IMG/VR virus record: IMGVR_UViG_3300025647_000019
Span: 29,965 to 93,964 of that record
Length of the DNA stretch: 64,000 nt
Strand: one strand, 5' to 3'
Source of the DNA: a virus
Shown here: piece after piece, positions 15,904 through 41,290 of the stretch
Layout: each line of letters opens with the position of its first letter
How positions within the stretch are numbered: position 1 is the stretch's first letter
Program-made: the position numbers and the translations under genes
Notes under the pieces: model-generated
What the model was told of the DNA's origin: nothing
Seen by the model: the letters and a program-made list of their open reading frames with translations, nothing else
Databases searched by the model: none

Positions 15904-15906
15904 AAT

Positions 15907-16302: not shown

Positions 16303-16309
16303 AAAAAGA

Positions 16310-16338: not shown

Positions 16339-16418
16339 AGGGCACGTTTACAACAGTGGTAATATTGCCACAACTCAACGTACAGCGATCAGCGGTACAA
16401 CTTTATAGGAGGTCCAAT

Positions 16419-17219: not shown

Positions 17220-17221
17220 TA

Positions 17222-17563: not shown

Positions 17564-17565
17564 AT

Positions 17566-18693: not shown

Positions 18694-18695
18694 AT

Positions 18696-19930: not shown

Positions 19931-20793
19931 AAAATAAAATCTTAGTTTTTTTAAATAGTTATGACGGGGGAACTTTTTTGGGTATGTTGATATTAATAAT
20001 TTGTCTTTTGTTTTATCATAACTGTTCAGCTCAAGAAATATCAGGGGATCTTTCAATCTTGGGAAATATTGATGTTACAAATAAAAGCGAAGATCCAAAT
20101 TCCCATTTACAATATTTTGGGGGAACATTAGATTCCGATAATGCTTTTGTTTCAGCTTCAATGGACAGTACTGAAACTTTAAAATTACGAGAAGCTTATA
20201 TTAAGTTTAATTATGACGGATTATTAATTCATATCGGTAAAGTTGCTGTTCCATTTGGTTATATGAATTTGGATGATCCGTCAACTAGCGTATTTATTTT
20301 GTATCCTCGAAAAGATTATCGTGACTATGGTTTACATTTATCTACTATGTATGATATAGTAAAGTTTGAAGGGGCATATATTGATCACGCCAATTATAGC
20401 ATTAAATCAAAATTAATATTATTGGGCGGGGGAGAAGTTATATCGATAAGTTATGCAAATAGTGAATATTTGAAGGAGTTAATACTTAATAATGAATTTT
20501 ATTTTTCCTCCCTATTATTCAATATGTCGAATGTATTAGAATGGTGTCCAGATAATGGTGATTTTTGGATCAGATCAGTATTTGCCCCGGGCATATTTGA
20601 TGTCTTAGGTTTAACATTAGGATATTATCATTTAGATTATATTGAACAAACATTACAAGATTATGATTTAACTGGTGATGCTTGGACTTATGGATGTTAT
20701 TTGGATTTTTCAACCCATGCAACTGTATCAACAGAATGGGTCTTTGGTGAAAGTATTAATAAACCAACAGTTAAACTTGTTGCAAAATTTTAA
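19927..20793 (+). CDS. Putative outer-membrane beta-barrel / porin-like protein
   Basis: Signal peptide (..CSA|QE), LREAYI...IGK..VPFG motif of OprO/P-like porins, alternating beta-strand pattern, C-terminal Phe. Confidence 0.55.
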   Translation: MKNKILVFLNSYDGGTFLGMLILIICLLFYHNCSAQEISGDLSILGNIDVTNKSEDPNSHLQYFGGTLDSDNAFVSASMDSTETLKLREAYIKFNYDGLLIHIGKVAVPFGYMNLDDPSTSVFILYPRKDYRDYGLHLSTMYDIVKFEGAYIDHANYSIKSKLILLGGGEVISISYANSEYLKELILNNEFYFSSLLFNMSNVLEWCPDNGDFWIRSVFAPGIFDVLGLTLGYYHLDYIEQTLQDYDLTGDAWTYGCYLDFSTHATVSTEWVFGESINKPTVKLVAKF

Positions 20794-20802
20794 GAGGTAA
20801 AA

Positions 20803-24104: not shown

Positions 24105-24574
24105 TATTTGATTTACCAAAAAACATGTTTCAACACATGACAAAGGTTGATACAAAAATCGATGATTCATTTTTTATTATTGATTCAATAGACAAGCAAA
24201 TAGCAAAAGCAATAGATGAAGAATTTTTGAACTTAATCGAAAGAGAGGAAAATAATATGGGAATGTACAGAAAGAAACCAGTCATTGTTGAAGCAATTCA
24301 ATGGACTGGTGAGAATAAAGAAGAAATTATTGGTTTCGTTGATGGAAATGGATTTTTTGATCATAATGATCTTGTGATCAAAACCCTTGAAGGGAAACTC
24401 ATATCAAAACCCGGGGATTATATAATCAAAGGTATTGATGGAGAATTTTATCCATGTAAAGAAAAAATATTCAATGAAACATACGAACGTGCCCATGGAT
24501 ATGAAATGGATATAACTGATGATTTCTTATCCCACGATTATAATATGGATACAAAACCGTTTCGAAGCAGATGA
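24101..24574 (+). CDS. Conserved phage protein (YRKKPV.VEAIQW / TLEG / GDYII domain)
   Basis: Recognisable common phage domain in the C-terminal half. Confidence 0.65.
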   Translation: MIFDLPKNMFQHMTKVDTKIDDSFFIIDSIDKQIAKAIDEEFLNLIEREENNMGMYRKKPVIVEAIQWTGENKEEIIGFVDGNGFFDHNDLVIKTLEGKLISKPGDYIIKGIDGEFYPCKEKIFNETYERAHGYEMDITDDFLSHDYNMDTKPFRSR

Positions 24575-24614
24575 CAAATAATTGATTAAGATTGGTTCAA
24601 TCTAAGGAGTTATT

Positions 24615-24815
24615 ATGGGAAAACAAAAAAGTGCAAATGAAATAAGAAATAACAAAGCAAAAAAAAGAGCCTCTAAAAAAAGAAAATATGCAAAACAACA
24701 TAAAGAAAAGCTAAGAGCTAAAATGAACCAAAGAAGGGATTTTATTGAACAACTCCAAAATGAATATGTAAAGGAAATGGTGAAACGTTATGAAGAGAGC
24801 CAAAAAGAAAATTAA
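24615..24815 (+). CDS. Small basic hypothetical protein
   Basis: AAGGAG RBS; Lys/Arg-rich. Confidence 0.5.
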   Translation: MGKQKSANEIRNNKAKKRASKKRKYAKQHKEKLRAKMNQRRDFIEQLQNEYVKEMVKRYEESQKEN

Positions 24816-25221
24816 AAGGAAACCGGTAAGATATCTTCGTAGAATAAAACCTGGTTATGTTAGAGAAGTTGTTACTTTAACCGAACAACTTAATACTGGT
24901 GATATTTTGGAATTTCAATATGGGCGTAAACAAAAACCAGGTCAAGTTGGCGGCTGGAAAAATGATCCTAAACCAAAGCTTTTAGTTTTTTATGATGATA
25001 AGATAAAATATATCGAAGGAATAAATACTAATTACCTGAGCGATTGGTATTTAATGAGACTGAATAATATTTTAAAGAAATACCCAGGGATTAATGGCGA
25101 AGAGCTTTATGATATAGTTATGAGGAGTACCAAAGGTGCTGTTCAAAAAGGCTATAGAAAATATATCAGAGCAAGTGTTAAGAATCCCTTGAAGCATATT
25201 TATAAAGTCGAAGGGGATTAA
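24790..25221 (+). CDS. Possible DNA end-protector protein (T4 gp2-like)
   Basis: F.Y...DPKP.LLV....GINTNYL resembles the gp2 core. Confidence 0.4.
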   Translation: MKRAKKKIKRKPVRYLRRIKPGYVREVVTLTEQLNTGDILEFQYGRKQKPGQVGGWKNDPKPKLLVFYDDKIKYIEGINTNYLSDWYLMRLNNILKKYPGINGEELYDIVMRSTKGAVQKGYRKYIRASVKNPLKHIYKVEGD

Positions 25222-25226
25222 ACGAT

Positions 25227-26021
25227 ATGAACGATATGAACGAAATAACGTCAACATATATTTTATTTGGTAAATTAAAAATTGGATCTGAATTTAGAAT
25301 GTTTAATGATCCTGATAATGCCATTCTTATTAAAACTGGAAATAAAACATATAGAACAAGTAAATCAAAAGTTACATACACTCTTGATCCAAAAACAAAA
25401 GTGCAATCTATGGGGGCAAAGGGATATAAATTTGATGAATCTTTTAATATACATTATCCATCACTTAAAAAGCTAGTCGATTTACAATACGATGATCCCC
25501 GCACGAAAGACAGCTGTACAATTGTCGCTGAAAAATGCGGAAAGCTAAGAAAAGAAAATGGAGAAGTTATTGAGGGATCATATATTATGTATGAGGATTC
25601 TGAAATGAAAGGCAAATTTATCGCAGTTCATGTTTCAGATGCTATCAATGAAGAATCTGGAGAATCCGAAGTAAATGTTATCGCTATTGGTAATAAGAAA
25701 TCTGTTCGTGAAAGAATGGGGTATAGGATTCGTAGAAATAAAAATCTTGAAGAGGGATTTAAACCTTATTTAGAAATACAATTAAATAATAAATTAAATG
25801 AAGTAAAAATTAACAAACAAAAAGTTCAAAATGCAACTGAATATGCAAACAATTATGACTTTAAAAAATCTAGAAATTTTATAGGGATGTTACAGGGATA
25901 CGGAATAAGCACAGAACCTGGATATGAATATACAATTGATGATGCAATTGATAATTTTGATGAAAAAGATAAACAAATGTTTGTTAAAGATATGAAAAAA
26001 TTTGGTTTTAAAGTAACTTAA
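25227..26021 (+). CDS. Hypothetical protein (possible head protein, several xxE motifs)
   Basis: ORF; AINEE, NLEE and KLNE motifs. Confidence 0.45.
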   Translation: MNDMNEITSTYILFGKLKIGSEFRMFNDPDNAILIKTGNKTYRTSKSKVTYTLDPKTKVQSMGAKGYKFDESFNIHYPSLKKLVDLQYDDPRTKDSCTIVAEKCGKLRKENGEVIEGSYIMYEDSEMKGKFIAVHVSDAINEESGESEVNVIAIGNKKSVRERMGYRIRRNKNLEEGFKPYLEIQLNNKLNEVKINKQKVQNATEYANNYDFKKSRNFIGMLQGYGISTEPGYEYTIDDAIDNFDEKDKQMFVKDMKKFGFKVT

Positions 26022-26068
26022 AATATAGAACGATTAACCACATCCAGAGAGATGTAGATCGGAAAAAA

Positions 26069-26239
26069 ATGAAATACTATTGTGAGAAGTGTAAGGGATC
26101 TTACACTATTCCAGTAGGGGATAAACTAATCGAAAAAAATGATATTTGTAAATGTGGTGAGAAAGCTAAAAACTTTCAAATTACAGACAATATCATTTTT
26201 TTTAAGTTCCCCGAAAATATGATGCTAATTAGGGGTTAA
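26069..26239 (+). CDS. Small zinc-ribbon protein (56 aa, not in ORF track)
   Basis: MKYYCEKC...ICKCG, translated by hand. Confidence 0.5.
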   Translation: MKYYCEKCKGSYTIPVGDKLIEKNDICKCGEKAKNFQITDNIIFFKFPENMMLIRG

Positions 26240-26242
26240 TAA

Positions 26243-26271
26243 TTTACTTTAATAGGTTTTTGTAATATAAT
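26243..26271 (+). promoter_or_regulatory. sigma70-like promoter TTTACT-17-TATAAT
   Basis: Exact spacing; upstream of dNMP kinase. Confidence 0.75.
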
Positions 26272-26296
26272 AGTTGAAACTAACTAGGAGGTTTTA

Positions 26297-26836
26297 ATGA
26301 TCATTCATATGGAAGGCCCAGATCGTTGTGGTAAAACCACAATTGCAAAATATTTGGCCAAGGTTTATAATCTAGAATATTGGCGATATAGTAATGTAGA
26401 TGAAACATTAAGAAGAAATCCCGATCACTGGAAATATATTCTACGATATTATTATTCTGAAATTCCTGAATTTGCTAAAATGCTAGAAAATCAAGGTAGT
26501 GGTTTAATTTTAGATCGAAACTATATCACTGAATGGGTTTATTCTAAATTATTTAAAAGAGATACATATCCCATTATTTTGGCTGACCTAGAAAGCCAAT
26601 ATGCAGAATTAGGAGCAGTTACCATTTATTGTACTAAAAAGAAATATGATGATTTTGAAGATGAGTTTGTAACAAAAAATCAGATTGATGAAATAAAAGA
26701 ACTCTATGAAAATTATTTTTTGATCTTTTCTAAAATGCCGGTTCTTTGGTTAGATACAACTAATGAGGATTTAGAAAAACAATTAGAAATTATTGATGAA
26801 TTTTTAAAGGAGAATGTTAATGTGGATGAAAATTAA
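26297..26836 (+). CDS. Deoxynucleoside monophosphate / thymidylate kinase
   Basis: EGPDRCGKTT P-loop, ILDR..TE.VYS. Confidence 0.85.
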   Translation: MIIHMEGPDRCGKTTIAKYLAKVYNLEYWRYSNVDETLRRNPDHWKYILRYYYSEIPEFAKMLENQGSGLILDRNYITEWVYSKLFKRDTYPIILADLESQYAELGAVTIYCTKKKYDDFEDEFVTKNQIDEIKELYENYFLIFSKMPVLWLDTTNEDLEKQLEIIDEFLKENVNVDEN

Positions 26837-27242
26837 AAAATTAAATGGACGAGCAAAATTACCAACAAGAGCCCATTCAACTGATGCTGGTATGGATGTA
26901 TATTCAATGAACAATGTTGTTATTGCTCCCGAGGGTGATTACTTATTTCCTCTTGGATGGGCTTGTGAAATACCAAGAAATTGGGCATTAATTGTAAAAG
27001 AAAAATCCGGTAGGGCTGTTAAAGATAAATTAGATGTTGGTGCATGTGTAATTGATTCGGGGTATCGTGGAGAAGTTCATGTTCACTTATTTAATAATTC
27101 AAAAATTCCCGTTGAAATAAAAGAAGGTGAAAAAATTGCACAGATGCTTTTGGTTCCTTGTTGGTGTGGGACTCCAGAAGAAGTTGATGAACTTGATAAT
27201 ACTCCTAGGGGTTCAGGGGGGTTTGGATCTACTGGATTATAG
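26820..27242 (+). CDS. dut: Trimeric dUTPase
   Basis: AGMD, KSG, VIDSGYRGE, KIAQ, RGSGGFGSTG. Confidence 0.95.
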   Translation: MWMKIKKLNGRAKLPTRAHSTDAGMDVYSMNNVVIAPEGDYLFPLGWACEIPRNWALIVKEKSGRAVKDKLDVGACVIDSGYRGEVHVHLFNNSKIPVEIKEGEKIAQMLLVPCWCGTPEEVDELDNTPRGSGGFGSTGL

Positions 27243-27251
27243 AACAAATTG

Positions 27252-27280
27252 TTTACATTTGTTGATAAGTGGTGTATAAT
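27252..27280 (+). promoter_or_regulatory. sigma70-like promoter TTTACA-17-TATAAT
   Basis: Exact spacing; upstream of PolB. Confidence 0.75.
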
Positions 27281-27312
27281 TGTATTATATACCATTTTTA
27301 TTAGGAGAGGTT

Positions 27313-29781
27313 ATGGCAAACACAACATATAAAATTTCTAGAATATGTTCTTCGTTTAATTATGGGAGATGGAATATCCATAAATTTGGCTATACTCCTA
27401 AAGGGGAATTTGTAAAAGTAAAGTCCGATTTTACTGATTATTTTTATTTTAATTCCGAAGAAGTTTCAAATTTAATTCCCTTTAATAAATTAGATCAAAA
27501 TGACTATGGGGATTATATGTCGGTTTATGGAAAACCGACTCGTAAAATTGAATACAGATCAATAAAAGAAAAAAATCAAGTTGTATCTCAATATCCTGAA
27601 TCAGTATATGAAGCAGATGTTCCCCCCGAGTTTAAATACCTTATGGAAATAAAACATGAATGGGCAGATTCATCTGAAAGACATATTCTATATTTTGATA
27701 TTGAAACATGGGCAAAAGATATAAGTTCTACTCCAGAAAGACCTGATGCTCCCATCACTTCTATTCAGCTTTACTCTACTAGGTTTCAGAGATACTTTTT
27801 GTTTGCTTGGCATCCGGAAAAGACTTCGGATTTCTCAGTTCCTAAAATTCTCCAGAATGAAGAAGTAACTTATATCTTTAGTAAAGACGAACGTGGAGTA
27901 ATTGAATCCTTTATTGCTTTTTTTGAAGAATATTCCCCAGATATTATATCTGGATGGTGGTCTGCTGGATTTGACTTACCATATATTCTTAATCGATGTT
28001 CCAGATTAAACATTGACTATAATCGTTTATCTCCAATAGGAAAAGTAAATCACTATCAAAAAAAGGGAAACTGGAAAACCTATATCAGTGGTGTTGATCA
28101 CATTGATATGCTTGAAGCAATAAAAGACATTGGATATAATCTTCCAAATTATAAACTTGCCACTGCTGCAAAAGAAATCCTTCAAGATCCTGATATTGAA
28201 AAGCTTACTGAAGTTACTTGGGCAGATTGGATGGACAATTTTGGGGGCTTTATAAAATACGGTCTTAGGGATGTCGAGATCCTTAAAGAAATAGATGAAG
28301 AACTAAAGATTTTTGACCTGTACTGCACGATTCAGAAACTTACAAACATTACTACGCTCGGTGAAGTTATGTTTAAATCGTCCGTTGTAGATAAGTTTAT
28401 TTTGACTGAAAGCCACGGAGAATATGTTTTCCCAACTCGTTCAACTTCATCTAGACAGAAATATATGGGTGCACATGTGATGGATCCTAAACCGGGTCTT
28501 CACAAGGATGTAGCTATTTTTGACTTTGCTTCGCTTTATCCAACATCCATTATGACGTTTAATATCTCTCCCGAGACTTTCATTTGCTCAGATAAGCAAC
28601 TTGAAAGAAGAGGATTAACAATAGATGATGTTATCGAGAATTTAAACAAAAGAAACATTCCATTTATCGATACAGGATATGATACAGAACTATTTGGAAA
28701 TAGATACTTGTTTTATTCTCACAGTCATAGATTGGGGATTTTTCCCAAGATCCTTAAAAAGATGTATGAAGAAAGAAAAGCAATCAAATCCGAAATGAGA
28801 AATGAATCTGATGAACATAAATTGAATACTTTAGATAAGCATCAGCAAGCAATTAAATTGATTCTTAATTCTGCTTATGGTGCTTTAGGATTTAATTATT
28901 TTAGATTATATAAACCTGAATGTGCTGATTCTATTACTTACTTTGCTAGACAAGCATTATATTTTGCCCAGGAAAGTTTGCAAAAAGAAGGAATGGAAGT
29001 TATATACCAAGATACAGACTCTGAATTTGCTCTTCAAAATGGGAAAACTGCTACCGAAATTAATATGTGGGTTGACCGATTCAATGGAAGTGAAGTTATT
29101 GAATTTGCTCAGCAATATAATAATGGGGAAATAGAATCTTTTGAAGATTATCTTACTCTTGAAATGGAATATGAAAAAGATCTAGAAAGAATTTATTTCG
29201 GTTATGATGATAAATTAAAAATTGGTGTTAAGAAAAGATATTATGGGATTATTCGTAATTCCCGAAAGAAGTATATTCGGGGATTGAATATCATTCGAAA
29301 AGATACTCCAGAATTCCTAAAAAAGAAATTAGATGTTCTTTCTGAATTGGCAGTCAATGATGCTCTTCAGATAAAACATCTTGAAACAATCAAAAAATTG
29401 ATAAAGCTTCAGGATCTAAAAAATATCGGAATAACTAAAGCATTTGGAAAAAGATTCGATGCTTATGATAAAACTCAGCCACAACATTTAGTTGCTGCTA
29501 AATGGGCAAATGAAATTTTAGGTTGCAATATAAACCATACACATAATCCATATTTGTTTTATGTTATTTCAAAATGTGAAGATCATCTTCCCAAAGGAAA
29601 AAGAAATAAAGCAATTTGCTTACTTGAGGAGGATCTAGAAAAGGCAAAAACAAATCCGGATCTTTTCGAAATCGATTATGACATATATTTCAGAAAACAA
29701 GTATTAGATCAACTTGAGGAGTTTGATCTTATTCCCTCTGTTAAAAATGTTATTGCAGAATATAAGGAGAAAATGAAATGA
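27313..29781 (+). CDS. Family B DNA polymerase
   Basis: Exo motifs FDIET, FDLPY, YGLRD; pol motifs DFASLYP, KLILNSAYG, YQDTDS, KKRY. Confidence 0.96.
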   Translation: MANTTYKISRICSSFNYGRWNIHKFGYTPKGEFVKVKSDFTDYFYFNSEEVSNLIPFNKLDQNDYGDYMSVYGKPTRKIEYRSIKEKNQVVSQYPESVYEADVPPEFKYLMEIKHEWADSSERHILYFDIETWAKDISSTPERPDAPITSIQLYSTRFQRYFLFAWHPEKTSDFSVPKILQNEEVTYIFSKDERGVIESFIAFFEEYSPDIISGWWSAGFDLPYILNRCSRLNIDYNRLSPIGKVNHYQKKGNWKTYISGVDHIDMLEAIKDIGYNLPNYKLATAAKEILQDPDIEKLTEVTWADWMDNFGGFIKYGLRDVEILKEIDEELKIFDLYCTIQKLTNITTLGEVMFKSSVVDKFILTESHGEYVFPTRSTSSRQKYMGAHVMDPKPGLHKDVAIFDFASLYPTSIMTFNISPETFICSDKQLERRGLTIDDVIENLNKRNIPFIDTGYDTELFGNRYLFYSHSHRLGIFPKILKKMYEERKAIKSEMRNESDEHKLNTLDKHQQAIKLILNSAYGALGFNYFRLYKPECADSITYFARQALYFAQESLQKEGMEVIYQDTDSEFALQNGKTATEINMWVDRFNGSEVIEFAQQYNNGEIESFEDYLTLEMEYEKDLERIYFGYDDKLKIGVKKRYYGIIRNSRKKYIRGLNIIRKDTPEFLKKKLDVLSELAVNDALQIKHLETIKKLIKLQDLKNIGITKAFGKRFDAYDKTQPQHLVAAKWANEILGCNINHTHNPYLFYVISKCEDHLPKGKRNKAICLLEEDLEKAKTNPDLFEIDYDIYFRKQVLDQLEEFDLIPSVKNVIAEYKEKMK

Positions 29782-30101
29782 GAACACGTTGGGATGAATT
29801 AAGAAGAATGGCTGGAGGAATTAATATTCCAGGTCCAGAAAGAATGGGTAAAACCTTTGTTGAACTTTTTTGTCATTGTGATTTTGAACCTTTTGGTCGT
29901 GCCTCTGAAATGTGGGAATATGTTTGGACATTACATTTTCCAGAAGCACCAAGAATGTGGAAATCAACAAAAGGTTGGGTTCAATCTCACACTCATCCAT
30001 ATGGAATGCAATTCAGGGGAAGATCAGTTGAAGATGTTATGAAACAAGCAGAAGATTTTTTTGGTGAATTGGAGAAACAAAATGACAGACCCAAGAAGTA
30101 A
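29778..30101 (+). CDS. Hypothetical protein
   Basis: Coupled ORF. Confidence 0.45.
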   Translation: MRTRWDELRRMAGGINIPGPERMGKTFVELFCHCDFEPFGRASEMWEYVWTLHFPEAPRMWKSTKGWVQSHTHPYGMQFRGRSVEDVMKQAEDFFGELEKQNDRPKK

Positions 30102-30630
30102 AGTTATGTGTGAATATTGTATGGACACACAAGTATATACTGCAAACCCAATGGACCCACCCCATTCGTGTCCATATTGTACACCAGCAGAAAATAGAGC
30201 AATAAGTTGGGATAGTATATGGATGGATCTTGCAAAGTCCATTGCTTTAAGATCAACATGTAAAACTCCAAATAGACAAGTTGGGTGTGTTATTGTATCA
30301 TCTGATAATTCAAGAGTATTAGCTCTTGGATATAACGGTTCAGCAAAGGGTGACGATAATTCTTGTGAATATGGAACTGGTCAAGCATTTAATAGTCGAT
30401 GTACATGTATTCACGCTGAAATGAATGCTCTGACTAAACTTGACACAACGAATCCATGTGATAAGAAAATGTATTTAACATTGTCCCCGTGTGATGTATG
30501 TTGGAAATTGATTGTTAATGCTGGTATTAAGGAATTAATTTTCGATGAAAAATATGGAACAACTGGTGAAAATTTAAAGTATCTAACACATTTAGGAATT
30601 TTGGTGAGGAAATTTAATGGAGATTATTGA
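30082..30630 (+). CDS. dCMP deaminase with N-terminal CxxC..CxxC
   Basis: RSTC, QVGCVIV, GYNG, HAEMNAL, PCDVC. Confidence 0.92.
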   Translation: MTDPRSKVMCEYCMDTQVYTANPMDPPHSCPYCTPAENRAISWDSIWMDLAKSIALRSTCKTPNRQVGCVIVSSDNSRVLALGYNGSAKGDDNSCEYGTGQAFNSRCTCIHAEMNALTKLDTTNPCDKKMYLTLSPCDVCWKLIVNAGIKELIFDEKYGTTGENLKYLTHLGILVRKFNGDY

Positions 30631-30843: not shown

Positions 30844-31026
30844 ATGAAAGTCACAAAAGACACATTAAGAGAATTAATAAAACAAGTAATAGACGAAATG
30901 TCTGATGATGAAATTATTACTTCAGAAATAGTTTCTAATACGACAGCAAACGTAGCTGGATATGATGGTCCTTTACAAAAAAAACCTGTAAAAAGGAAAT
31001 TGAGTAAGAAAAAAGATAAGGATTAA
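30844..31026 (+). CDS. Small protein with leader variant MKVTKDTLRELIKQVIDE
   Basis: Leader-like N-terminus. Confidence 0.5.
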   Translation: MKVTKDTLRELIKQVIDEMSDDEIITSEIVSNTTANVAGYDGPLQKKPVKRKLSKKKDKD

Positions 31027-31869: not shown

Positions 31870-32460
31870 ATGAATATTTGGGTATTTTTTGAAATATTTA
31901 ATAGATTAAATAAAAGGCTTAGAAAACTTATGTCAAAAAACGAGATTGAAATACAAACATTAAAATTGGAAAGGAATCCAAGAAACCCCAATTGGGGTCA
32001 AAGAGATATTTCTTTGATAAATAAAATAATAGTTCATCAAGAACTTGGAGAAGGAACAACTGAGCAAGTTCACGCATATCATATAAGTAAAGAATCACAT
32101 TTAAAACCAGGTGTTGGAGCTCCGGCCATAGCATACCATTTTACAATTGAAAAAGATGGAACTATATATAAAGTAAATGATCTTACAGATGTCACTTGGC
32201 ATTGTGCAGGAGAAAATCTTCAAAGCATTGGAATAATGGCTGTGGGAGATTTTGCATGTAAAGATAATATTAATGGAAAGGCCCCAACACAAGAGCAATT
32301 GAAATCTTTAAGATTATTGTTAAATTATTTAACCGATAAATATATGATTCTTAAAGCTAATGTTTATGGGCATAAAGACTTTGGGAAAGAATCTTGCCCG
32401 GGATTTGTTTTATATGATTTTGTTCAAGATTATAAAAAAGAAAGCTTTAATGTAGTATGA
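31870..32460 (+). CDS. N-acetylmuramoyl-L-alanine amidase (endolysin)
   Basis: IIVH, IAYHF.I..DG, WHC.G.N..SIGI, YGHKD...CPG. Confidence 0.9.
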   Translation: MNIWVFFEIFNRLNKRLRKLMSKNEIEIQTLKLERNPRNPNWGQRDISLINKIIVHQELGEGTTEQVHAYHISKESHLKPGVGAPAIAYHFTIEKDGTIYKVNDLTDVTWHCAGENLQSIGIMAVGDFACKDNINGKAPTQEQLKSLRLLLNYLTDKYMILKANVYGHKDFGKESCPGFVLYDFVQDYKKESFNVV

Positions 32461-34853
32461 AAGTAAAATACCATAAATTTACAGGTAGTATGCCTATTAT
32501 TTTTGTAGAGAGATTTTCAGATTTTGCTACAAAAATAGGATGTCGTCGGGAAGAATTAGAAGAAGGAACTGAATTTGATGGTGGAAAATATTTTAGAACT
32601 ATTGGATTTAAAGGATCTCCACTAAAATTTGCTGTATTTGAAGACTCAATGATGAGAACTCTTTTTGGTACTAGACGAAATGATATAGTTGATGCTACCT
32701 TGGCAATGTATGTTTCCGAAAAGAAATATCCATTAAACAGTAAATTATCAATGAATAATGCAATTAAAATGACTTTAGAAAATGATGCTCAAGGAGCATA
32801 TAGAATTTTACAAAAAGTTTATTTGAATAAATTTAAGGTTGAGAATCCATATCACAAAATAGCTATTCAAGAAGGATTTATCAATGAAGTTCCAGATAAA
32901 CATTTGAATGAACCCGGTGATGCTGAAAAATATAAAGATTCCCATACTCATGTTTCAGGGGGGGAAGGAAATCTTTATATGGTTGGAAAAATGCCACAAG
33001 AAAAGGCACAAGAAAAAGCAAAGAAACAAGGTGCCGATGCTAAACTTGTCAAAGGAAAAATGGTTCCATTATCACCCGAGGAAAAAAAACCATTAGATGG
33101 TGATAAACAAAAACCCCAACAAGAACCAAAAGAGCCTAAAAAAAGAGAAGTTAAAATTGTCAAGACAGATACCGGAGAAGAAATCTCTCCTGAAGAATTA
33201 CCGACTGATACAACGGGAAATGCCGAGCAAGAAAAAACTGGGGGAGGTCAAATTACCCCTGACAAAGTATCAGACAAAAACTTTGATAATATGATTTCGG
33301 CAATTAAAAAGTCTGGGAATAAATCAAAGGAAATAGATGAAGTAATTTCTCTTTTGGAAAAAGCAAAAAAAGGTGAACCAATTTCTACTGCCGAAGCTAA
33401 ATTTATTGGACAATATATTCGACCAACTGAAAGCCCAAAAAATGTTTATATGACACATTCTCAAGTACCAGGAAACCCTCTAGAAGATTTTGGAAAAAAG
33501 GGTATTAAAAGAAACTATGATAAAATTGGAAACCCGACATTAAATAGATTATTAAAACAACTTGGAATCCCTGAAGCAGTCCAAACCCTTACTGGTAGCT
33601 CTAAAATGAAACCAGAAAAAATATTCATAGATGAAAATGGCGATACTAGAACAACAAAAGTTAAAATGGGGGCAGGATCTAAAGGACTTACTATCAATGG
33701 AAGAACTTTAAAAGAAAAGAAAATCCCCGATGGATCTAAATTTGTTGATTATTATCTTCAGCAAGGACTTTCTCAAGAAGAAGCTAAATCTAAAGCAAAA
33801 AATGCTATAAGAGCCTTGAAAAAGTATAATAAAGGGATTGAATATTTCAGAAATGTTATTCAATCTGAAGGAACTGATGCTTTATCAACCATAGATATTA
33901 TTCCAGGGGTTCATCCAACAACATCAGAAAATCGTAGAAAATTAATTGATAAAGCCATTGATGATACAGTATTAAAAATGGCTCAATTAACTGAAGGACA
34001 TAATAAAGAAGAAATAATTAAAGGATTAGAAAAATTAAAAAAAGCTAATTCCGATAATTTTGAACAAATAATGGATGAAGCTCTTCACCCCTTAATGACA
34101 GATAAACTATTAAGAGACGGAGGAGCAGATCTTGTTGAAGTTATTAGCTATGTAAAAGCTTTAGTTAATGGATATGAAGCTTATATGCCTGCAGAAGGAA
34201 ATTGGCCATTAGGTGATGTTTTGATTTTACCCGGTGAAGATACTCCTTTAAAGACTATTGAAGATATGGCAACACATCTCGACATGATTGCAGTTTCATT
34301 AGAAAATCAATCAGTTAAAAAGAATGCTGGGGCTGCCAGTGCAGCAAAAAATAAAATTGAACAGTCATCATTCGTAGATCCACCTCCGGGAGTAAAAGAA
34401 GATCTCCAAAAAATGGAAGGTGAGATTTATGATGATATCTGGAATAATAACAACTTAGATAAAGCAGAAGAAGCTATATATGAACTATATCAAAAATATG
34501 GATTAGATCCAAAAAAATATTTAAAAGATCCAAGTGCAAAACAAATTGATAAAGTTTTAAAAATGAACTTAAAAGCAAACCCAGAATTGGATAAAAAAGA
34601 GCATAGAAGACAATTAGAATTAGAATATTTAAATGGAATGCTTTTACAGGATGTTCATAATGCTTATATTGATACTCAATTTTATTCAAATGAAGTATAT
34701 AAGGTTCAGAAAAATAATTTTACAACGAATAGATCTAACGGGGTTACAAAAATCGCATATATGAAATATGCCTTTAATAACAAATATAGTAAAAGTGGAA
34801 AACCCGATACTAGAATTGCTGGACTTATGGTAAATAAAGATAGGATGAAATAA
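32457..34853 (+). CDS. Large putative internal virion protein with PD-(D/E)XK-like C-terminal domain
   Basis: FINE motif, K/E/P-rich linker, E..YMPAEGNWPLGDVL...SVKK pattern. Confidence 0.4.
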   Translation: MKVKYHKFTGSMPIIFVERFSDFATKIGCRREELEEGTEFDGGKYFRTIGFKGSPLKFAVFEDSMMRTLFGTRRNDIVDATLAMYVSEKKYPLNSKLSMNNAIKMTLENDAQGAYRILQKVYLNKFKVENPYHKIAIQEGFINEVPDKHLNEPGDAEKYKDSHTHVSGGEGNLYMVGKMPQEKAQEKAKKQGADAKLVKGKMVPLSPEEKKPLDGDKQKPQQEPKEPKKREVKIVKTDTGEEISPEELPTDTTGNAEQEKTGGGQITPDKVSDKNFDNMISAIKKSGNKSKEIDEVISLLEKAKKGEPISTAEAKFIGQYIRPTESPKNVYMTHSQVPGNPLEDFGKKGIKRNYDKIGNPTLNRLLKQLGIPEAVQTLTGSSKMKPEKIFIDENGDTRTTKVKMGAGSKGLTINGRTLKEKKIPDGSKFVDYYLQQGLSQEEAKSKAKNAIRALKKYNKGIEYFRNVIQSEGTDALSTIDIIPGVHPTTSENRRKLIDKAIDDTVLKMAQLTEGHNKEEIIKGLEKLKKANSDNFEQIMDEALHPLMTDKLLRDGGADLVEVISYVKALVNGYEAYMPAEGNWPLGDVLILPGEDTPLKTIEDMATHLDMIAVSLENQSVKKNAGAASAAKNKIEQSSFVDPPPGVKEDLQKMEGEIYDDIWNNNNLDKAEEAIYELYQKYGLDPKKYLKDPSAKQIDKVLKMNLKANPELDKKEHRRQLELEYLNGMLLQDVHNAYIDTQFYSNEVYKVQKNNFTTNRSNGVTKIAYMKYAFNNKYSKSGKPDTRIAGLMVNKDRMK

Positions 34854-36679
34854 TGGCAGTAAGTAAACCAAATGTTATAGTATCCTATGGGGGAAGATTT
34901 CAGCCCTTTCATTTAGGACATTTTAAAGTTTATCAGGCCTTAGTTAAAAAATTCGGTAAAAAAAATGTATACATAACTACTTCAAATAAAGTTGAAGATA
35001 AAAAAAGCCCATTATCTTTTCAATGGAAAAAAAAGATGATGATTCATACTGGCGTTCCATCAAATAAAATTCTTCAAGTTGCAAATGGGTATAAAGCAGA
35101 TCTTGTTTCTAAAGCTGCAGGATTCAATTTAGAAGATACAATATGGATTTCGGCTATTGGGGAAAAAGATGTAAGCAGATTAAGTGGTTGGAATTATTTT
35201 TTACCATATAAATCTGGGGGAGCAATGGTAACTGCTGATAAGCATGGTTATTATTATCCAGTTCCAAGTTCTGAAAGCGTTACCAAAGTTCAGGGAAAAG
35301 TTTTATCTGCAACAGTTGTTCGTGATGTATTAAGAAAAGACGAGTTAGATAAAAAAGATTATGAATTTTTAAAGGGGGCTCTTGGAGCTCCTAGAGCTTT
35401 AATTGATACTTTACGAACTCAAATAAAATTAGAATCTCAAATTAGAAATGGTACGATTTTAACCGAAGGTGGGATGGGTGGACATATGTCTAATCTTTAT
35501 GATGATCCCACATTAAAATTCTCAGATCTTGAAAAAATTATTAAAGACTCCTTAAGCGGTGAATTAAATAAAACAGAAATTCGAGAAAAAACTGATGGCC
35601 AAAATTTATTCGCATCAGTTATAAATGGGGAAGTTCGTTTATCAAGGAATAAATCTCAAACCAAAAATAAAGGAGCTAATTCCCTAGATGCTCAAGGTAT
35701 TGCTAAAAATTGGGCAGAGGTTCCACAAGTAAGAGATGCATTTTTAGAAGCTTTGAAAGCATTAGAGACTTCATTTAAGCAATTTTCAAAAGAGGAACTA
35801 GAAACTATTTTTGACAATGGGGGAAATTGGGTTAATATGGAAATTATGACTCCGAGTAACCAAAATGTTTTCTATTATGGGGATCCCCAAGTTGTATTTC
35901 ATGGATTAGAAATGGTTGATGATGATGGTAAGAAAATTGGGGTTAATGCAGATCTAACTAAAAAACTATATGATAAAATTAGTTCTATTAAGCCAGGAAA
36001 AGTTCCTGTTAAAACTCCCCCGTTTGTAAAATTAAAAAAACGTGAGGATTTTTCGGAAAAAACTTCATACTTTATTTCAAAATTATCAAAATTTAGAAGT
36101 CAACAAAAAGTTGGAAGTAATGCAACTCTTGGTGATTGGTATGAAAAATATTTTGAGAAAAAAATTTCCGAAATGGAAAAGAAATATAGTCATAAAATAG
36201 ATCCAAAACTTAAAGCTAAAATTGCTTATAGATTTGGATGGAACGATAAGTCCTTAACTATGCCAACAATAAAAAAGGAATTAAAATTCTTACCAGTATA
36301 TGAAGAACTAGCACAATTGAATCGGAATCTAAATGATGAATATAAAAAAGCTAGAGAACCTCTTGTTAGATTATTGATGGAATTAGGTATTGAGGTATTA
36401 CAGAATCTTGAGCAGTATTTATCAGCAAGTCCTGAGCAAACTATTCAGAATTTAAGAGATAATCTTGCTAAAAAAATAAAACAAATTCGGGGATCTAAAA
36501 ACCCTGAAGACATAGAAAAAATGAAAGACATTTTAAAGCAGGTTCAATCTGTTGGAGGAATTCAGAATATGGTTCCAACAGAAGGTATTATCTTTGTTTA
36601 TAATGGCAAATCTTATAAGTTAACGGGGACATTTGCTCCTATAGGGAAGTTACTTGGAATGGGAAGGTATGGTAGATGA
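34853..36679 (+). CDS. HxGH nucleotidyltransferase fused to RNA-ligase-like (covalent nucleotidyltransferase) domain
   Basis: GGRFQPFHLGH; after ILTEGG come EKTDG (I), NMEI (III), VVFH (IIIa), EGIIF (IV), YKL (V). Confidence 0.75.
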   Translation: MAVSKPNVIVSYGGRFQPFHLGHFKVYQALVKKFGKKNVYITTSNKVEDKKSPLSFQWKKKMMIHTGVPSNKILQVANGYKADLVSKAAGFNLEDTIWISAIGEKDVSRLSGWNYFLPYKSGGAMVTADKHGYYYPVPSSESVTKVQGKVLSATVVRDVLRKDELDKKDYEFLKGALGAPRALIDTLRTQIKLESQIRNGTILTEGGMGGHMSNLYDDPTLKFSDLEKIIKDSLSGELNKTEIREKTDGQNLFASVINGEVRLSRNKSQTKNKGANSLDAQGIAKNWAEVPQVRDAFLEALKALETSFKQFSKEELETIFDNGGNWVNMEIMTPSNQNVFYYGDPQVVFHGLEMVDDDGKKIGVNADLTKKLYDKISSIKPGKVPVKTPPFVKLKKREDFSEKTSYFISKLSKFRSQQKVGSNATLGDWYEKYFEKKISEMEKKYSHKIDPKLKAKIAYRFGWNDKSLTMPTIKKELKFLPVYEELAQLNRNLNDEYKKAREPLVRLLMELGIEVLQNLEQYLSASPEQTIQNLRDNLAKKIKQIRGSKNPEDIEKMKDILKQVQSVGGIQNMVPTEGIIFVYNGKSYKLTGTFAPIGKLLGMGRYGR

Positions 36680-37779
36680 GTGAATCGTTATTAAAAATCT
36701 TAGTATTAGAAGGCGGAGCAGTTTTTAAAACTACTATATCCGCAGTTCCAAAAGAATATTTAAATCCAACAATGAATAAAGCTCTTAAAGATTCAGGGTT
36801 TGGGAAAATAAGATCAAACCCTGTTGGAAATATCTCAAAACCTTTTTTAGGAGATGTTGATATTGCTGTTGAATTTGAAGATCTTGTTAAATTATTTGGA
36901 TCAACTAAAGATAAAAAAGACTTTTGGGAAAAAGCTGATATCTTTATGAAGAAACAAAAAATTAAAGACTATTCAATAAATAAGGGTCTTCAACAGATTC
37001 ACGTTCTTTCTCCCTTAGTTGATAAAAAAGGAAAACAATTACCTGCTGTTAATAAAGAAGGAAAAGAAATTGGAGGAGAAGGATGGGTTCAAATTGATTT
37101 TATGATTGGTCGAGTAAAATTCATGAAAGACATGCTATCAGGAACAGTTGATAGCAAATATAAAGCAGCATGGAGAAATCAATTATTAGTCGATATTCTA
37201 GCTAATACCTCAACTGGTGATGGGGATGTAAAACATAAATTCCAGGTTAATCGTAAAGACGGATTACAATACGTTCGTTATATAGATCAAAACGGTAAAA
37301 AGAAGAAATTAAATGTTAAGACAGTATCTACTGATATGGATGAAATTTCTTCTTATATATTCGGGAAAAAATATAAATGGAAAGACGTTGATACATTTGA
37401 AAAAATGTGGAAAGCATTTAAAGGATCCGAATTTAGGTGGGCAAGTAAACGTAAGCAAATAATTAAAACCTTTACCGATGCTTTAAAAAGACAAAAAATG
37501 GAATTGCCTTCTGAATTAAATGAAGTAGAAAAAACTATGAATAAGAAACAAATTACTGAAATTGCTGAAATCATTTTAGAAGAACTTGAAAATAAAAATG
37601 AAAAACTCATTAAGCTTATAAAATCTTATGAAGAAAGATTAGATTCTAGTGAATTAAATGAAGAAATTTTTATTGAAGAAACTGAAAGGGCTCTTAGAGA
37701 ACACTTGGGATTCCATGATGATACTGAACTAACAAAAGCTGAATCGGAATTAGAGCGTATGAGGAGATTAATGGGATGA
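36676..37779 (+). CDS. Pol-beta superfamily nucleotidyltransferase
   Basis: LVLEGG N-terminus, GN....GDVDIA, VQIDFM catalytic Asp triad. Confidence 0.7.
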   Translation: MSESLLKILVLEGGAVFKTTISAVPKEYLNPTMNKALKDSGFGKIRSNPVGNISKPFLGDVDIAVEFEDLVKLFGSTKDKKDFWEKADIFMKKQKIKDYSINKGLQQIHVLSPLVDKKGKQLPAVNKEGKEIGGEGWVQIDFMIGRVKFMKDMLSGTVDSKYKAAWRNQLLVDILANTSTGDGDVKHKFQVNRKDGLQYVRYIDQNGKKKKLNVKTVSTDMDEISSYIFGKKYKWKDVDTFEKMWKAFKGSEFRWASKRKQIIKTFTDALKRQKMELPSELNEVEKTMNKKQITEIAEIILEELENKNEKLIKLIKSYEERLDSSELNEEIFIEETERALREHLGFHDDTELTKAESELERMRRLMG

Positions 37780-38159
37780 AAAAGAAAGAATTAATTGAGC
37801 TAATAAGGGAAGTAATTTATTCTGAACTTCCAGATATTATTTCAGAAATCAAAGCTTCTTCTTATGAAAATAATGAATATTTAAAAGAAGAAGACGTTTT
37901 TGATGGTCAATCAGTTCGGGAACATATAAGATCTGAATTTAGAAAAGTAAATCCAATTCAAGAAAGACCTAAAGCCCCAAAAGGTAAAAAAATGTTAGTT
38001 GATTATAGAGGAGAGAAAGTTACTTCTGGATTGGGAGTAATGGATTGGTTTAAAGGACAAGTAGCAGAAGGAAAAACTAGACCAACTGGTGAATTTAAAC
38101 ATACTGATGATCAAATGAAAAATTTTATGGAACAAAAATTTGGAAAGAAGATAAAATGA
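37776..38159 (+). CDS. Protein with leader variant MKKKELIELIREVIYSE
   Basis: Leader-like N-terminus. Confidence 0.5.
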   Translation: MKKKELIELIREVIYSELPDIISEIKASSYENNEYLKEEDVFDGQSVREHIRSEFRKVNPIQERPKAPKGKKMLVDYRGEKVTSGLGVMDWFKGQVAEGKTRPTGEFKHTDDQMKNFMEQKFGKKIK

Positions 38160-38722
38160 AAGTATCAAAAGAAATTTATGATTTAGTTCAAAAGCACGAC
38201 CAAAAAGAAATTAAAATGGGAATTGCTGTTGAGCGTGAACACGATGTTGGTGACACAGACGTTGTTCAATCTGATCTTGATGTATTGAAAATCGCTCTTG
38301 CCCATCTTGAAGAAGACCCCGAATATTATACCCATCTGAAAGCAATGGAAGATAAATATGTCAAAGAACGTGATGGTATGTCTATTGATGTTAAAAAGGG
38401 AATGAAACCTTGGACTAAAAAGAAAAAAAGTAGATTAGCGTCTGAAGAAATGGTTCAAGAATGGATTCTTGAAGAAGGAACTGGAACACTTAAAAAAAAA
38501 ACTTTAAATGAAGCTCCACACATTGAAGTCAACGATAAGGTTATTGATTTCGAATTTGAAAAAGACAAAAACGAAGGTCTCAAAAAAATAATCAAAGCCA
38601 TTATGAAACAAGAAATTTCCGACAAGTATGGCAACAAATTTAAACTCACATCAGATCGGGAGGTTGAGGAATTCATAAAGAAGATTATGAGAAATCCTCA
38701 GATTAAACGATTAATATCTTAA
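38156..38722 (+). CDS. DUF5661-like phage protein
   Basis: MGIAVEREH...IALAHLEEDPEYYTHLKAME motif (family recalled from memory). Confidence 0.55.
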   Translation: MKVSKEIYDLVQKHDQKEIKMGIAVEREHDVGDTDVVQSDLDVLKIALAHLEEDPEYYTHLKAMEDKYVKERDGMSIDVKKGMKPWTKKKKSRLASEEMVQEWILEEGTGTLKKKTLNEAPHIEVNDKVIDFEFEKDKNEGLKKIIKAIMKQEISDKYGNKFKLTSDREVEEFIKKIMRNPQIKRLIS

Positions 38723-40426: not shown

Positions 40427-40667
40427 AATAATTCTTGAAAATCTAGAAGGAGTTAGATTCAACAAAAGAATAACCATGGGGGACGATTATTCGTGGATAT
40501 GCAAATCTATTAATCCAGCACTTAAAAATGGATTTTCATCTGAAAATATAGTTTACAATTGGATAGAAACAGTGTATTATAGAACGGATGAATGTTTATA
40601 CGATGAAGAAAGTAATTCTCTATTGACAATATATCGTCAAAGGGATCTACCAAGGAGATGTCCATAA
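40416..40667 (+). CDS. Hypothetical protein
   Basis: Coupled ORF. Confidence 0.4.
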   Translation: MGNKIILENLEGVRFNKRITMGDDYSWICKSINPALKNGFSSENIVYNWIETVYYRTDECLYDEESNSLLTIYRQRDLPRRCP

Positions 40668-41290
40668 TGAAACAAATTAAATTTTCAACTGACAAGATTA
40701 TGGCATTAGTCGATTATTTCAATAATAAAATCGATGAAATTGAATGCCCTAAAAATCATGCCGCCGCTCGGGCATTGATTGAAGATGTAGGAGAGCGATT
40801 CTTTTCAGCCCCGGCATCCGGTAGATTGATGTATCATAACTGTTGTGTTGGAGGATTACTTGAGCATTCAATTAGAGTCCATACTATTTTTTCTGATCTT
40901 TGTGAAAAATATCATGAAGTTGAAAGCAAAGATGACATTATTATTGCAGCACTATTTCATGATATTGGTAAAATTGGAACATTAGATCAAGATTATTATG
41001 TACCAAAAAATTCAAAATGGCACGAAGAAAATATGGGTCTTTATTATGAATCAAATCCAAAACTTCGATTCATGCCTCATGCACAAAGATCTCTTCAGCT
41101 CTTGGGTCAATATGAATTCAATTTAGTAAATGATGTTTATACTGGGATCCTTATTCACGATGGACAGTATGTTGATGAAAATAAGCCGTATAAAATGAAA
41201 GAAGGAAAGTTTCCTCTTTTGCTTCACATGGCAGATAGACTTGCTTGTGAAATTGAAAAAGAAAAATGGGAGGAATTGAATGGAATTTGA
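40658..41290 (+). CDS. HD-domain phosphohydrolase (YhaM-like)
   Basis: APAS..YH...GGLLEHS, FHDIGK, HDG, LHMAD. Confidence 0.88.
   Translation: MSIMKQIKFSTDKIMALVDYFNNKIDEIECPKNHAAARALIEDVGERFFSAPASGRLMYHNCCVGGLLEHSIRVHTIFSDLCEKYHEVESKDDIIIAALFHDIGKIGTLDQDYYVPKNSKWHEENMGLYYESNPKLRFMPHAQRSLQLLGQYEFNLVNDVYTGILIHDGQYVDENKPYKMKEGKFPLLLHMADRLACEIEKEKWEELNGI

Follow-up and report, generated by a model that had tools for sequence, protein, structure and literature searches.

A Candidate Polynucleotide End-Repair Kit in Two Coupled Genes of an Uncultured T4-Like Phage

Two translationally coupled genes, here called P1 and P2, encode three nucleotidyltransferase folds in a 64,000-nucleotide stretch of virus DNA (hereafter the window; bases 29965-93964 of the 93,964-bp IMG/VR contig IMGVR_UViG_3300025647_000019). 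P1 combines an HxGH nucleotidylyltransferase with an RNA-ligase-like domain, and P2 carries a family-X-polymerase-like (PolX-like) domain. We consider it somewhat probable that the two proteins form a phage polynucleotide end-repair kit (healing, filling, and sealing), acting most likely on RNA and probably on tRNA. Such a pathway is suggested because a ligase, a 3′-end-extending nucleotidyltransferase, a kinase-like P-loop domain, and an HD phosphoesterase occur together in the family. Judged by its head and tail genes, the source phage would be an uncultured, T4-like one; the contig has a G+C content of about 31% and an estimated completeness of 47%. Coordinates are window positions unless marked genome.

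Three Nucleotidyltransferase Folds in Two Genes

An initial annotation of this DNA had read three nucleotidyltransferases from motifs at 34853-37779, and each motif that it quoted (GGRFQPFHLGH; EKTDG...EGIIF...YKL; GDVD...QID) lies intact at its place, within open reading frames (ORFs) whose start and stop codons overlap as ATGA. Structure prediction for each domain, which it had proposed, returned NMNAT-like, RNA-ligase-like, and PolX-like folds. The features of the two genes are listed below; a slash in a motif marks a putative cut, and predicted local distance difference test (pLDDT) scores are those of AF2 models.

34853..36679, plus strand: P1 gene, 608 amino acids (aa), HxGH nucleotidylyltransferase and RNA-ligase-like domain (ORF; more than 460 homologues; pLDDT 86)
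34853..35446, plus strand: NMNAT/NadM-like HxGH (HIGH) domain, aa 1-198 (Pfam PF01467, fold, invariant residues)
35447..35470, plus strand: inter-domain linker, aa 199-206 (pLDDT <50), with the ILTE/GG junction (aa 202-207, nucleotides 35456-35473)
35468..36676, plus strand: RNA-ligase-fold covalent nucleotidyltransferase domain, aa 206-608 (fold and invariant motifs)
35468-35485, plus strand: invariant GGxxGH start motif of the ligase domain
35585-35605, plus strand: motif I, EKTDGQN, aa 245-251
35645-35653, plus strand: RNK (R265-N-K)
35834-35848, plus strand: motif III, NMEIM, aa 328-332 (E330)
35894-35905, plus strand: motif IIIa, VFHG, aa 348-351
35945..36562, plus strand: all-helical insert of ~200 aa separating motifs IIIa and IV, aa ~365-570 (from DSSP on the AF2 model)
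36581-36628, plus strand: motifs IV-V, EGIIF (aa 577-581)...YKLTG (aa 588-592)
36676..37779, plus strand: P2 gene, 367 aa, with a short leader, a PolX-like domain, and a fused small module (ORF; 158 representative homologues; pLDDT 92)
36676..36711, plus strand: N-terminal leader MSESLLKILVLE, ending [LI]xE directly before GG (pLDDT <50 for aa 3-13)
36712..37521, plus strand: minimal family-X-polymerase-like domain (palm and fingers), aa 13-282 (VIA, Foldseek, invariant Asp)
36826-36870, plus strand: GNISK...GDVDIAV (GN, aa 51-52; GDVDIAV, aa 59-65)
37087-37101, plus strand: VQIDF, aa 138-142
37159-37179, plus strand: YKAAWRN
37537..37776, plus strand: fused C-terminal module, aa 288-367, function not assigned

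The N-terminal domain of P1 carries GGRFQPFHLGH (aa 13-23, nucleotides 34889-34921) and SATVVR (SxTxxR; 35306-35323), and it matches Pfam CTP_transf_like (PF01467, E 6.5e-7) and the PHROG "cytidyltransferase" (6.7e-9). Residues R15, H20, H23, S152, T154, and R157 are invariant or nearly so across 36 homologues. When the AF2 model was compared with known structures by VIA, the best match was M. jannaschii NMNAT 1f9a (Z 12.3; 152 aa aligned, root-mean-square deviation (rmsd) 3.1), followed by NadM 2qjt and NadD 4rpi (both Z 12.0); PPAT and cytidylyltransferases reached Z 9-11, with glycerol-3-phosphate cytidylyltransferase 2b7l at Z 9.1. Foldseek likewise placed NadM, NadD, NMNAT, and PPAT at the top. 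The modeled fold thus appears closest to NMNAT/NaMNAT, with intact catalytic motifs. P1 scored no more than 29.5 bits against NCBIfam NMNAT equivalogs, for which the cut-offs are 103-449.

The C-terminal domain of P1 gave no match in Pfam (RNA-ligase families, E up to 1), PHROGs, NCBIfam, or the PDB, either as a single sequence or as a profile. In VIA, residues 205-608 of the model matched Naegleria Rnl5 (NgrRnl, 5cot) at Z 9.2 (187 aa, rmsd 4.2), T4 Rnl2 (1s68/2hvq) at Z 8.6, and Trl1, REL1, and T4 Rnl1 at Z 8.1-8.5; the matches to 5cot, 1s68, 2hvq, 1xdn, and 9do4 span Z 8.1-9.2 over 176-193 aa. DNA ligases rank below RNA ligases, with the African swine fever virus (ASFV) ligase 6imk at Z 7.8. 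Ligase chains align over only ~180-200 of the ~400 residues of the domain, and the helical insert, which known RNA ligases lack, consists of nine helices (aa 366-566, pLDDT mostly 85-97). Alignments of 36 and of 17 sequences show no variation at K246, D248, G249, E330, H350, E577, G578, and K589; N of motif I, R265-N-K, and F349 are likewise constant, and the motifs stand in the canonical order. The sequence of motif I fits KxDGxN, and motif V holds one lysine (K-L-T) rather than K-x-K. On the model, this domain is a putative divergent ATP-type ligase of the RNA-ligase fold with intact motifs, predicted to undergo adenylylation and to join ends.

P2 also had no match in Pfam, PHROGs, NCBIfam, or the PDB, by single sequence or by profile. 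Its first nine VIA matches all belong to family X, including Leishmania Pol beta and Pol mu, and cover 158-193 residues; the Pol beta palm-thumb 3lqc scored Z 9.0 (172 aa, rmsd 4.6), TdT 8.9, and Pol lambda and TthPolX 8.7. Residues 17-241 of P2 align to Pol beta 142-334, and residues 21-241 cover all 174 residues of ASFV PolX 5hr9 (Z 8.5; 158 aa, rmsd 3.4), whereas other enzymes of the Pol-beta fold (TUTases and CD-NTases among them) reached Z 6.4 or less over ~95 aa. The top 50 Foldseek matches are all Pol beta, Pol lambda, or TdT; in the viral library BFVD, uncharacterised phage proteins rank first and giant-virus PolX next. GN (51-52), D60, D62, and D141 are invariant among P2 homologues. 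With only a 12-aa leader N-terminal of the palm, P2 lacks the 8-kDa lyase and HhH subdomains. These models point to a minimal family-X-polymerase-like nucleotidyltransferase with predicted polymerase activity, so that the Pol-beta-type fold and the motifs of the initial annotation were borne out while its generic or CCA-type label gave way to family X.

Two other identities were considered for P2. No CCA-adding enzyme appeared in the top 50 of either fold search, where family X fills the top ranks; tRNA CCA repair is unsupported on this ranking, and such absence from a list is not exclusion; a paralogous origin of P2 and the P1 C-terminal domain was rejected (BLASTP E 0.33). The fused tail of P2 opens with its own leader-like helix, MNKKQITEIAEIILEELE, which follows ELNE (aa 280-283). 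In relatives this module forms separate proteins of ~76-81 aa (P0198, P0230, P0244, P0251, and P0255), and it is fused in P0123 and P0124.

Domain Fusions, Gene Order, and Distribution

The protein collection contains more than 460 P1 homologues and IMG/VR at least 458. Lengths of 800-1,600 aa are frequent, long relatives reaching ~1,800 aa, and the long homologues carry extra domains between or before the two P1 domains, namely an AAA_33/Zeta P-loop kinase and HD (e.g., P0016), DUF5661, ParB-like, and SH3-like domains. Architectures with both PF18905 (DUF5661) and PF01467 were seen, DUF5661 lying inside many long P1 homologues; in the present phage the DUF5661, HD, and SH3-like domains are separate genes (at 38156, 40658, and 2626, respectively).

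Hidden Markov models of the three kit domains, run over the P2-domain homologues, revealed fusions in many orders: HxGH-ligase-PolX (P0148, P0139, P0156), ligase-PolX-HxGH (P0154, P0168, P0187), PolX-ligase-HxGH (P0160), HxGH-PolX-ligase (P0175), ligase-PolX (P0138), and HxGH-PolX (P0164, P0178). Gene order tells a similar story, with P1 followed by P2 at loci L127, L145, and L148 and three adjacent separate genes at L162-L165; for the closest relatives, P1-P2 adjacency is based on L127, L145, and L148 together with matching source-contig sizes. Because the domains are fused in many orders and their neighbourhoods are conserved, they make up one evolutionary unit and apparently a functional one, with a linkage that is not universal.

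The PolX-like domain also has other ligase partners. It is fused to a canonical PF09414 RNA_ligase domain (L149, 2.7e-7), with weak matches to tRNA_lig_CPD (the fungal tRNA-ligase phosphodiesterase) and NT5C, and elsewhere to DUF6267, which bears KWDG and EGYVF motifs; judging from these sequences, Pfam DUF6267 is probably a further unrecognised ligase family. A separate observation concerns an abundant 992-aa phage protein (L095:5871-8846 and ~30 near-identical IMG/VR loci, L095-L136), in which a leader (MIKLNNLEHFLVSNILLNE) is followed by DUF6267, a second nucleotidyltransferase (GS...GDIDVMV), and a PolX-like domain after LLITE/GG. The cultured Agrobacterium jumbo phage Atu_ph07 has a gene with a ligase motif (EKLDGS) that overlaps a PolX-like gene. 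Adjoining this pair (L168, MF403008: 43318-50592) are about nine tandem paralogues of ~250-360 aa, each starting M(R/K)W(E/H)QL(T/N)E or MRLFQLLE; Atu_ph07 also encodes an S77 protease.

Among 185,579 cellular species genomes, 18 loci were found, scattered over phyla that include archaea; 15 bear explicit titles of metagenome-assembled genomes or uncultured assemblies, and named cultured isolates contribute none. The kit family appears essentially viral, because the cellular loci are few and none belongs to such an isolate. Mel-JY01 is the only cultured phage with a P1 homologue, and a literature search found no paper on it.

Proposed Repair Pathway

If the kit works like T4 Pnkp/Rnl1 and like RlaP together with an RNA ligase, a host nuclease would cut RNA (e.g., in a tRNA anticodon loop) and healing enzymes would restore 3′-OH and 5′-P ends. 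The PolX-like enzyme could then re-add one or a few missing nucleotides at the 3′-OH, after which the ligase, adenylylated at K246, would transfer AMP to the 5′-phosphate and seal the break. The HxGH domain would most likely make or remove a 5′-5′ pyrophosphate-linked adenylate for the fused ligase, either on a nucleotide cofactor or on a 5′-phosphate end; we know of no reaction on 5′-phosphate ends or on a ligase adenylate in the HxGH superfamily. RNA is the favoured substrate because the partners in relatives are an AAA_33/Zeta kinase, an HD domain, and a canonical PF09414 ligase fused to the PolX-like domain. Of the counter-defence role originally proposed for these genes, RNA repair fits these partners, and the rebuilding of NAD+ fared poorly (no NadV was found in the contig or in the Mel-JY01 genome, and equivalog cut-offs were missed).

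Several points weigh against this pathway. Members of the kit are known from sequences and models, and the ligase and PolX assignments combine fold matches of Z 8-9, which may count as "middling," and motif invariance, without profile matches. Even with E relaxed to 10, PF09414 itself found nothing in the genome, and hhalign gave a probability of 3% for P1-type against PF09414-type ligases, yet the region of motif III lines up between them, as do E-G..H, EKxDG, and R(N/S)K. No PolX-like gene was found in 80 loci with P1 homologues (31-38% identical), nor in Mel-JY01. As for RNA versus DNA, family X enzymes are DNA polymerases, the two genes follow the replication module, and neither PF01068 nor another DNA ligase was found in the 94-kb contig, which is 47% complete.

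Junctions, Leaders, and the Question of Packaging

The initial annotation had placed the ligase and PolX-like domains directly after ILTE/GG and LVLE/GG (P2 aa 9-14), with ELNE before the leader-like helix of P2, and the two GG junctions recur across the family. Counting residues back from the putative cut as positions 1-4 (P1-P4 in protease notation), the junction before the PolX-like domain has L/I at position 3 in 92% and E at position 1 in 94 of 96 unique contexts, position 2 being free. Before the ligase domain, L occupies position 4 in 83%, L/I position 3 in 96%, and E position 1 in 70%. The pattern [LI]-x-E is the cleavage rule of the T4 prohead protease gp21. The junction precedes two unrelated folds and sits in segments that are unstructured in the AF2 models. 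Some stand-alone homologues start exactly at MGGN, others with MKTFKQFLAE/GG, MVSFKQFLLE/GG, or MKLLSFREFLIE/GG, and long P1 homologues start with MNKLTEWLTKPFLDE, MSLKKLVEEITKPVIDE, or MNxLSQFLVESILxE. The T4 capsid-targeting sequence (CTS) is MKTYQEFIAE, with a single cut at its end (bioRxiv 10.1101/2021.01.19.427310).

The neighbouring leaders noted at the outset are real: in the present phage at least six otherwise unrelated ORFs begin with MKKSELKxLIKECxxEL(N/Q)E, and the gene after P2 bears a degenerate copy.

Genome 25722-26183 and 26195-27331 (upstream of the window): common-leader ORFs
2380-2616, 3039-3365, 6383-6685, and 7682-8008: common-leader ORFs in the window
30844-31026 and 37776-38159: degenerate copies of the common leader
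Genome 27335-27928: Peptidase_S77 prohead protease (match at genome 27401-27844, 92.9 bits)

The common leader is kept as a peptide and not as DNA, as shown by synonymous differences and unrelated upstream DNA. Two of its ORFs sit in the stretch from portal to protease; in the 378-aa one the leader recurs internally as IIKECYIELTE/A. From its sequence and placement, the leader looks like this phage's equivalent of the T4 CTS. The propeptide of the Gp23-type capsid protein ends LMTE/A, presumably a counterpart of FLTE/A at the end of the T4 capsid propeptide. Besides this phage, which encodes Peptidase_S77, 9 of the 10 further kit-bearing genomes or contigs tested also have it; the one without is a 21%-complete fragment. 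Relatives keep the P1 homologue close to the head genes, 1.5-2.5 kb upstream of terminase/portal, with the protease 8-11 kb away.

Packaging and injection of kit proteins is, on these sequence features, plausible and unproven; the chances are roughly even for P2-type proteins and lower for P1. Many members carry a T4-CTS-like leader and [LI]xE/GG, the phage's own Peptidase_S77 could cut them inside the head, and injection of the DNA could carry them into the cell, a scheme that would fit P2 and the small leader-bearing neighbours better than the leaderless P1. The full scenario is more tentative, and on the whole doubtful: a large group of uncultured, aquatic T4-like phages would load a repair set for RNA (or DNA) into the capsid by means of a CTS-like leader (the ligase, the HxGH transferase, and the PolX-like filler, joined in relatives by a kinase and an HD phosphatase), sever it at [LI]xE/GG with the prohead protease, and inject it with the genome to mend host-nuclease breaks before phage expression, the HxGH domain acting on 5′-phosphate ends or the ligase adenylate. 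For the candidate packaging of the initial annotation, indirect signs were found (a family-wide junction, S77, CTS-like leaders, and terminase/portal neighbours), whereas P1 proved leaderless.

The chances are just as even that the enzymes are cytoplasmic, hhxEGG and the N-terminal helices being structural or catalytic parts or an interaction peptide, with nothing packaged or injected. The points against packaging all speak for this alternative. P1 of the present phage and its closest relatives have no N-terminal leader, which is the weakest link for packaging, and the module lies 37 kb from the head genes. At ligase junctions, the residue before the putative cut is M in 26%. An E-G...H start is also found in PF09414-type ligases fused to PolX-like domains, and because of this shared start the junction E may be part of the enzyme rather than of a cleavage site; the Atu_ph07 pair starts at MGG or MNT without a leader. 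A scan for consensus promoters and terminators scored no better than shuffled sequence, and TATAAATA is missing from the vicinity, so that there is no timing signal, and the label "late" once given to these genes was not upheld. Set against a purely cytoplasmic role are the occurrence of the same junction before two unrelated folds in unstructured segments, its agreement with the gp21 rule (L/I, free, E), the likeness of the leaders to the experimentally defined T4 CTS, the same leader type between portal and protease, S77 in 10 of the 11 tested genomes or contigs (that of this phage among them), and homologues that start exactly at GG.

Alternative Substrates and Roles

It is rather unlikely that DNA is the substrate, in which case gaps or nicks in phage DNA would be filled by the PolX-like enzyme and closed by the ligase (during replication, in base-excision-type repair, or post-entry), like ASFV Pol X and its ligase. 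The best folds of P2 are the DNA polymerases beta, lambda, TdT, and ASFV PolX, with giant-virus PolX in BFVD, and the genes lie just downstream of those for PolB, ribonucleotide reductase, DnaB, UvsX/RecA, gp32, and dCMP deaminase. ParB-like domains in some fusions, the ASFV ligase 6imk among the ligase-fold matches (Z 7.8), and the lack of a PF01068 match in the contig agree with a DNA substrate, but the last says little in a contig that is 47% complete. RNA ligases, however, are the top ligase matches, and motif I is KxDGxN; the PolX-like domain occurs in fusions with canonical RNA-ligase Pfam domains, a kinase and an HD domain are partners that RNA healing typically involves, and relatives have the gene next to the head module and not the replication module.

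RNA end repair also competes with a reading of the HxGH domain as a true NMN adenylyltransferase, the kit mainly rebuilding NAD+ (or handling NAD-derived signals) against NAD-depleting defences. GRFQPFHxGH is the NadM/archaeal NMNAT signature, the best folds are NMNAT, NadM, and NadD (Z 11-12), and the best NCBIfam matches are NaMN/NMN adenylyltransferases. We nevertheless find NAD salvage quite improbable, because NadV was not found, NCBIfam scores fall far under the cut-offs (≤29.5 against 103-449 bits), and KptA/Tpt1, an NAD+ consumer in RNA repair, was not found; a link to NAD-dependent 2′-phosphotransfer was dropped for the last reason. NadV/NAPRTase (PF04095) was sought in the contig (47% complete) and in the complete Mel-JY01 genome, and every NadM-bearing phage surveyed elsewhere had NadV (PMC9503650). 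The domain has no Nudix partner and is ligase-fused in hundreds of proteins, and PPAT and cytidylyltransferases match nearly as well (Z 9-11).

Activation of a sugar or polyol phosphate (cf. CDP-glycerol and ADP-heptose enzymes) for the glycosyltransferase island from 39287, foreseen in the initial annotation as a possible refutation, has in its favour the cytidylyltransferase-like Pfam family name, the 2b7l match (Z 9.1), and glycosyltransferases and a PfkB kinase 1.5-7 kb downstream, but it is most improbable because the HxGH-ligase fusion is family-wide (at least 458 confirmed IMG/VR relatives), and in relatives the gene sits beside terminase/portal, NMNAT-type matches are better (Z 12 versus 9), and the motif is of the NadM type.

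Comparison with Known Systems

The closest known concept for the kit is RlaP (PF10127; a concept of Burroughs and Aravind) with an RNA ligase. RlaP is a Pol-beta nucleotidyltransferase linked to RNA ligases in phages (PMC7824862), and it adds one or two nucleoside monophosphates to damaged RNA 3′-OH ends and is needed to restore tRNA function (Carruthers et al., bioRxiv 10.64898/2025.12.29.696909). P2 resembles it in being adjacent or fused to three kinds of ligase (P1-type, PF09414, and DUF6267 with KWDG). It differs in having no PF10127 match (E up to 1), a family-X fold with fingers, a link to HxGH, and a leader with a cleavage-like site.

T4 Pnkp with Rnl1/Rnl2, bacterial Pnkp/Hen1, and fungal Trl1 share with the kit the ligase fold and motifs I, III, IIIa, IV, and V, and, as in T4 Pnkp/Trl1-type enzymes, P1 relatives add a P-loop kinase and an HD phosphoesterase in one polypeptide. 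Unlike known RNA ligases, P1 has no Pfam match to a ligase family, a ~200-aa insert, an invariant GGxxGH start, and K-L-T in motif V instead of K-x-K. P1 shows no accessory domain of the kinds defining Rnl1, Rnl2, Rnl3, and Rnl5, and in this phage the HxGH transferase replaces the kinase. With ASFV Pol X (O174L) and the ASFV ligase, P2 and P1 share a minimal palm-plus-fingers architecture without 8-kDa/HhH subdomains, the Asp triad, and the pairing with a ligase; identity to ASFV Pol X and family X is 11-14% with no profile match, and P2 has an extra C-terminal helical region. With NadM and archaeal NMNAT, P1 shares GRFQPFHxGH, SxTxxR, and a Rossmann-like fold (Z 12), but it falls under the equivalog cut-offs, has no Nudix or NadV partner, and is ligase-fused.

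Among packaged proteins, T4 internal proteins and Alt likewise have a short amphipathic leader that ends [LI]xE before G/A; S77, Gp20, and Gp23 are encoded here too, and the leader is also found on head-module ORFs. In contrast, the candidate cargo would consist of enzymes for nucleic-acid repair, not of small basic proteins or an ADP-ribosyltransferase, the site also lies between domains, and P1 is leaderless. Polyvalent proteins (Iyer et al., 2017; PMC5512222) are also long polypeptides of unrelated enzyme domains in shuffled orders, with proposed delivery alongside DNA. Their hub domains MuF, zincin peptidase, and ArdC did not turn up in 22 long relatives that were scanned, processing here would be by a head protease and not by autoproteolysis, and the survey of polyvalent proteins reported no RNA ligases together with their 2H phosphoesterase domains (PMC5512222). 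In the literature searched, which did not extend to Burroughs and Aravind (2016), we found no description of the HxGH-ligase fusion, of the present PolX-like family, or of leader-bearing repair polyproteins.

Precedents for RNA repair in phages are T4, whose Pnkp and Rnl1 counter the PrrC nuclease, and RlaP, characterised recently. The kit would probably join the known phage systems for RNA or polynucleotide repair, with two enzyme families unrecognised by sequence libraries (the ligase and the PolX-like family) and an NMNAT-like transferase as a constant addition; its mode of delivery, plausible and unproven, would be new. Hundreds of uncultured phages with T4-type head genes carry the kit, and its domains bear T4-style marks of targeting and head-protease processing. 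If packaging were confirmed, the kit would be the first case of repair enzymes demonstrably delivered along with a genome, widening phage-head cargo beyond T4 IP proteins and Alt and offering testable counter-defence candidates against tRNA- and RNA-cleaving systems. New nucleic-acid tools might also come from the minimal PolX-like enzyme and from the insert-bearing ligase.

Genomic Setting and Other Observations

P1 and P2 are the third and fourth genes of a six-gene run (starts at 31870, 32457, 34853, 36676, 37776, and 38156) in which start and stop codons overlap by 1-4 nucleotides. Its other members are as follows.

31870..32460, plus strand: N-acetylmuramoyl-L-alanine amidase, first of the run (Pfam Amidase_2, 7.1e-20)
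32457..34853, plus strand: 798-aa lysine/glutamate-rich protein coupled upstream of P1, function not assigned
37776..38159, plus strand: 127-aa gene coupled to P2, with the degenerate leader copy MKKKELIELIREVIYSE
38156..38722, plus strand: DUF5661 protein, last coupled gene (Pfam PF18905, 7e-14)

The 798-aa protein gave no family or fold lead in Pfam, PHROGs, NCBIfam, or the ESM Atlas (Atlas pLDDT 0.51). The longest source contigs of its homologues and of close P1 homologues match in size (16100, 14513, 61892, and 114796), and since these sizes match, the two are likely to be co-located. The 127-aa protein had no match in Pfam, PHROGs, or NCBIfam. The glycosyltransferase island begins at 39287, after the run.

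The P1/P2 module lies ~37 kb from the head module and downstream of the replication genes. Head genes on the contig comprise a terminase, a Gp20-type portal, the Peptidase_S77 prohead protease, an acidic scaffold-like protein, and the Gp23-type capsid protein; the tail sheath gene is at 4115-6334. Replication and nucleotide genes at 14959-30630 encode a PolA fragment, gp32, RecA/UvsX, a 5′-3′ exonuclease, DnaB, a class II ribonucleotide reductase, PolB, and dCMP deaminase. The family A DNA polymerase match (14959-15903; 314 aa, 1.5e-12) is fragment-sized, and a full family B polymerase is present at 27280-29781. No tRNA genes were found in the window.

At the edge of the glycosyltransferase island stands a stand-alone HD/HDIG phosphohydrolase gene (40658-41290; Pfam 2.6e-9), which may be a functional part of the kit, HD being fused in some P1 homologues such as P0016; BLASTP of its product against P1-homologue loci with HD fusions gave no match. 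The first ~50 residues of a 138-aa protein at 2626-3042 (GDIILRGKYRNKK...PTINGK) correspond to a small domain, for which no family name was found, that lies within or at the start of long P1 homologues (26 related loci). In a relative that also encodes a ParB-HxGH-ligase protein, a portal-like ORF (L062:11321-15175) is 1,284 aa long, twice the usual length, and may hold an intein or a fusion.

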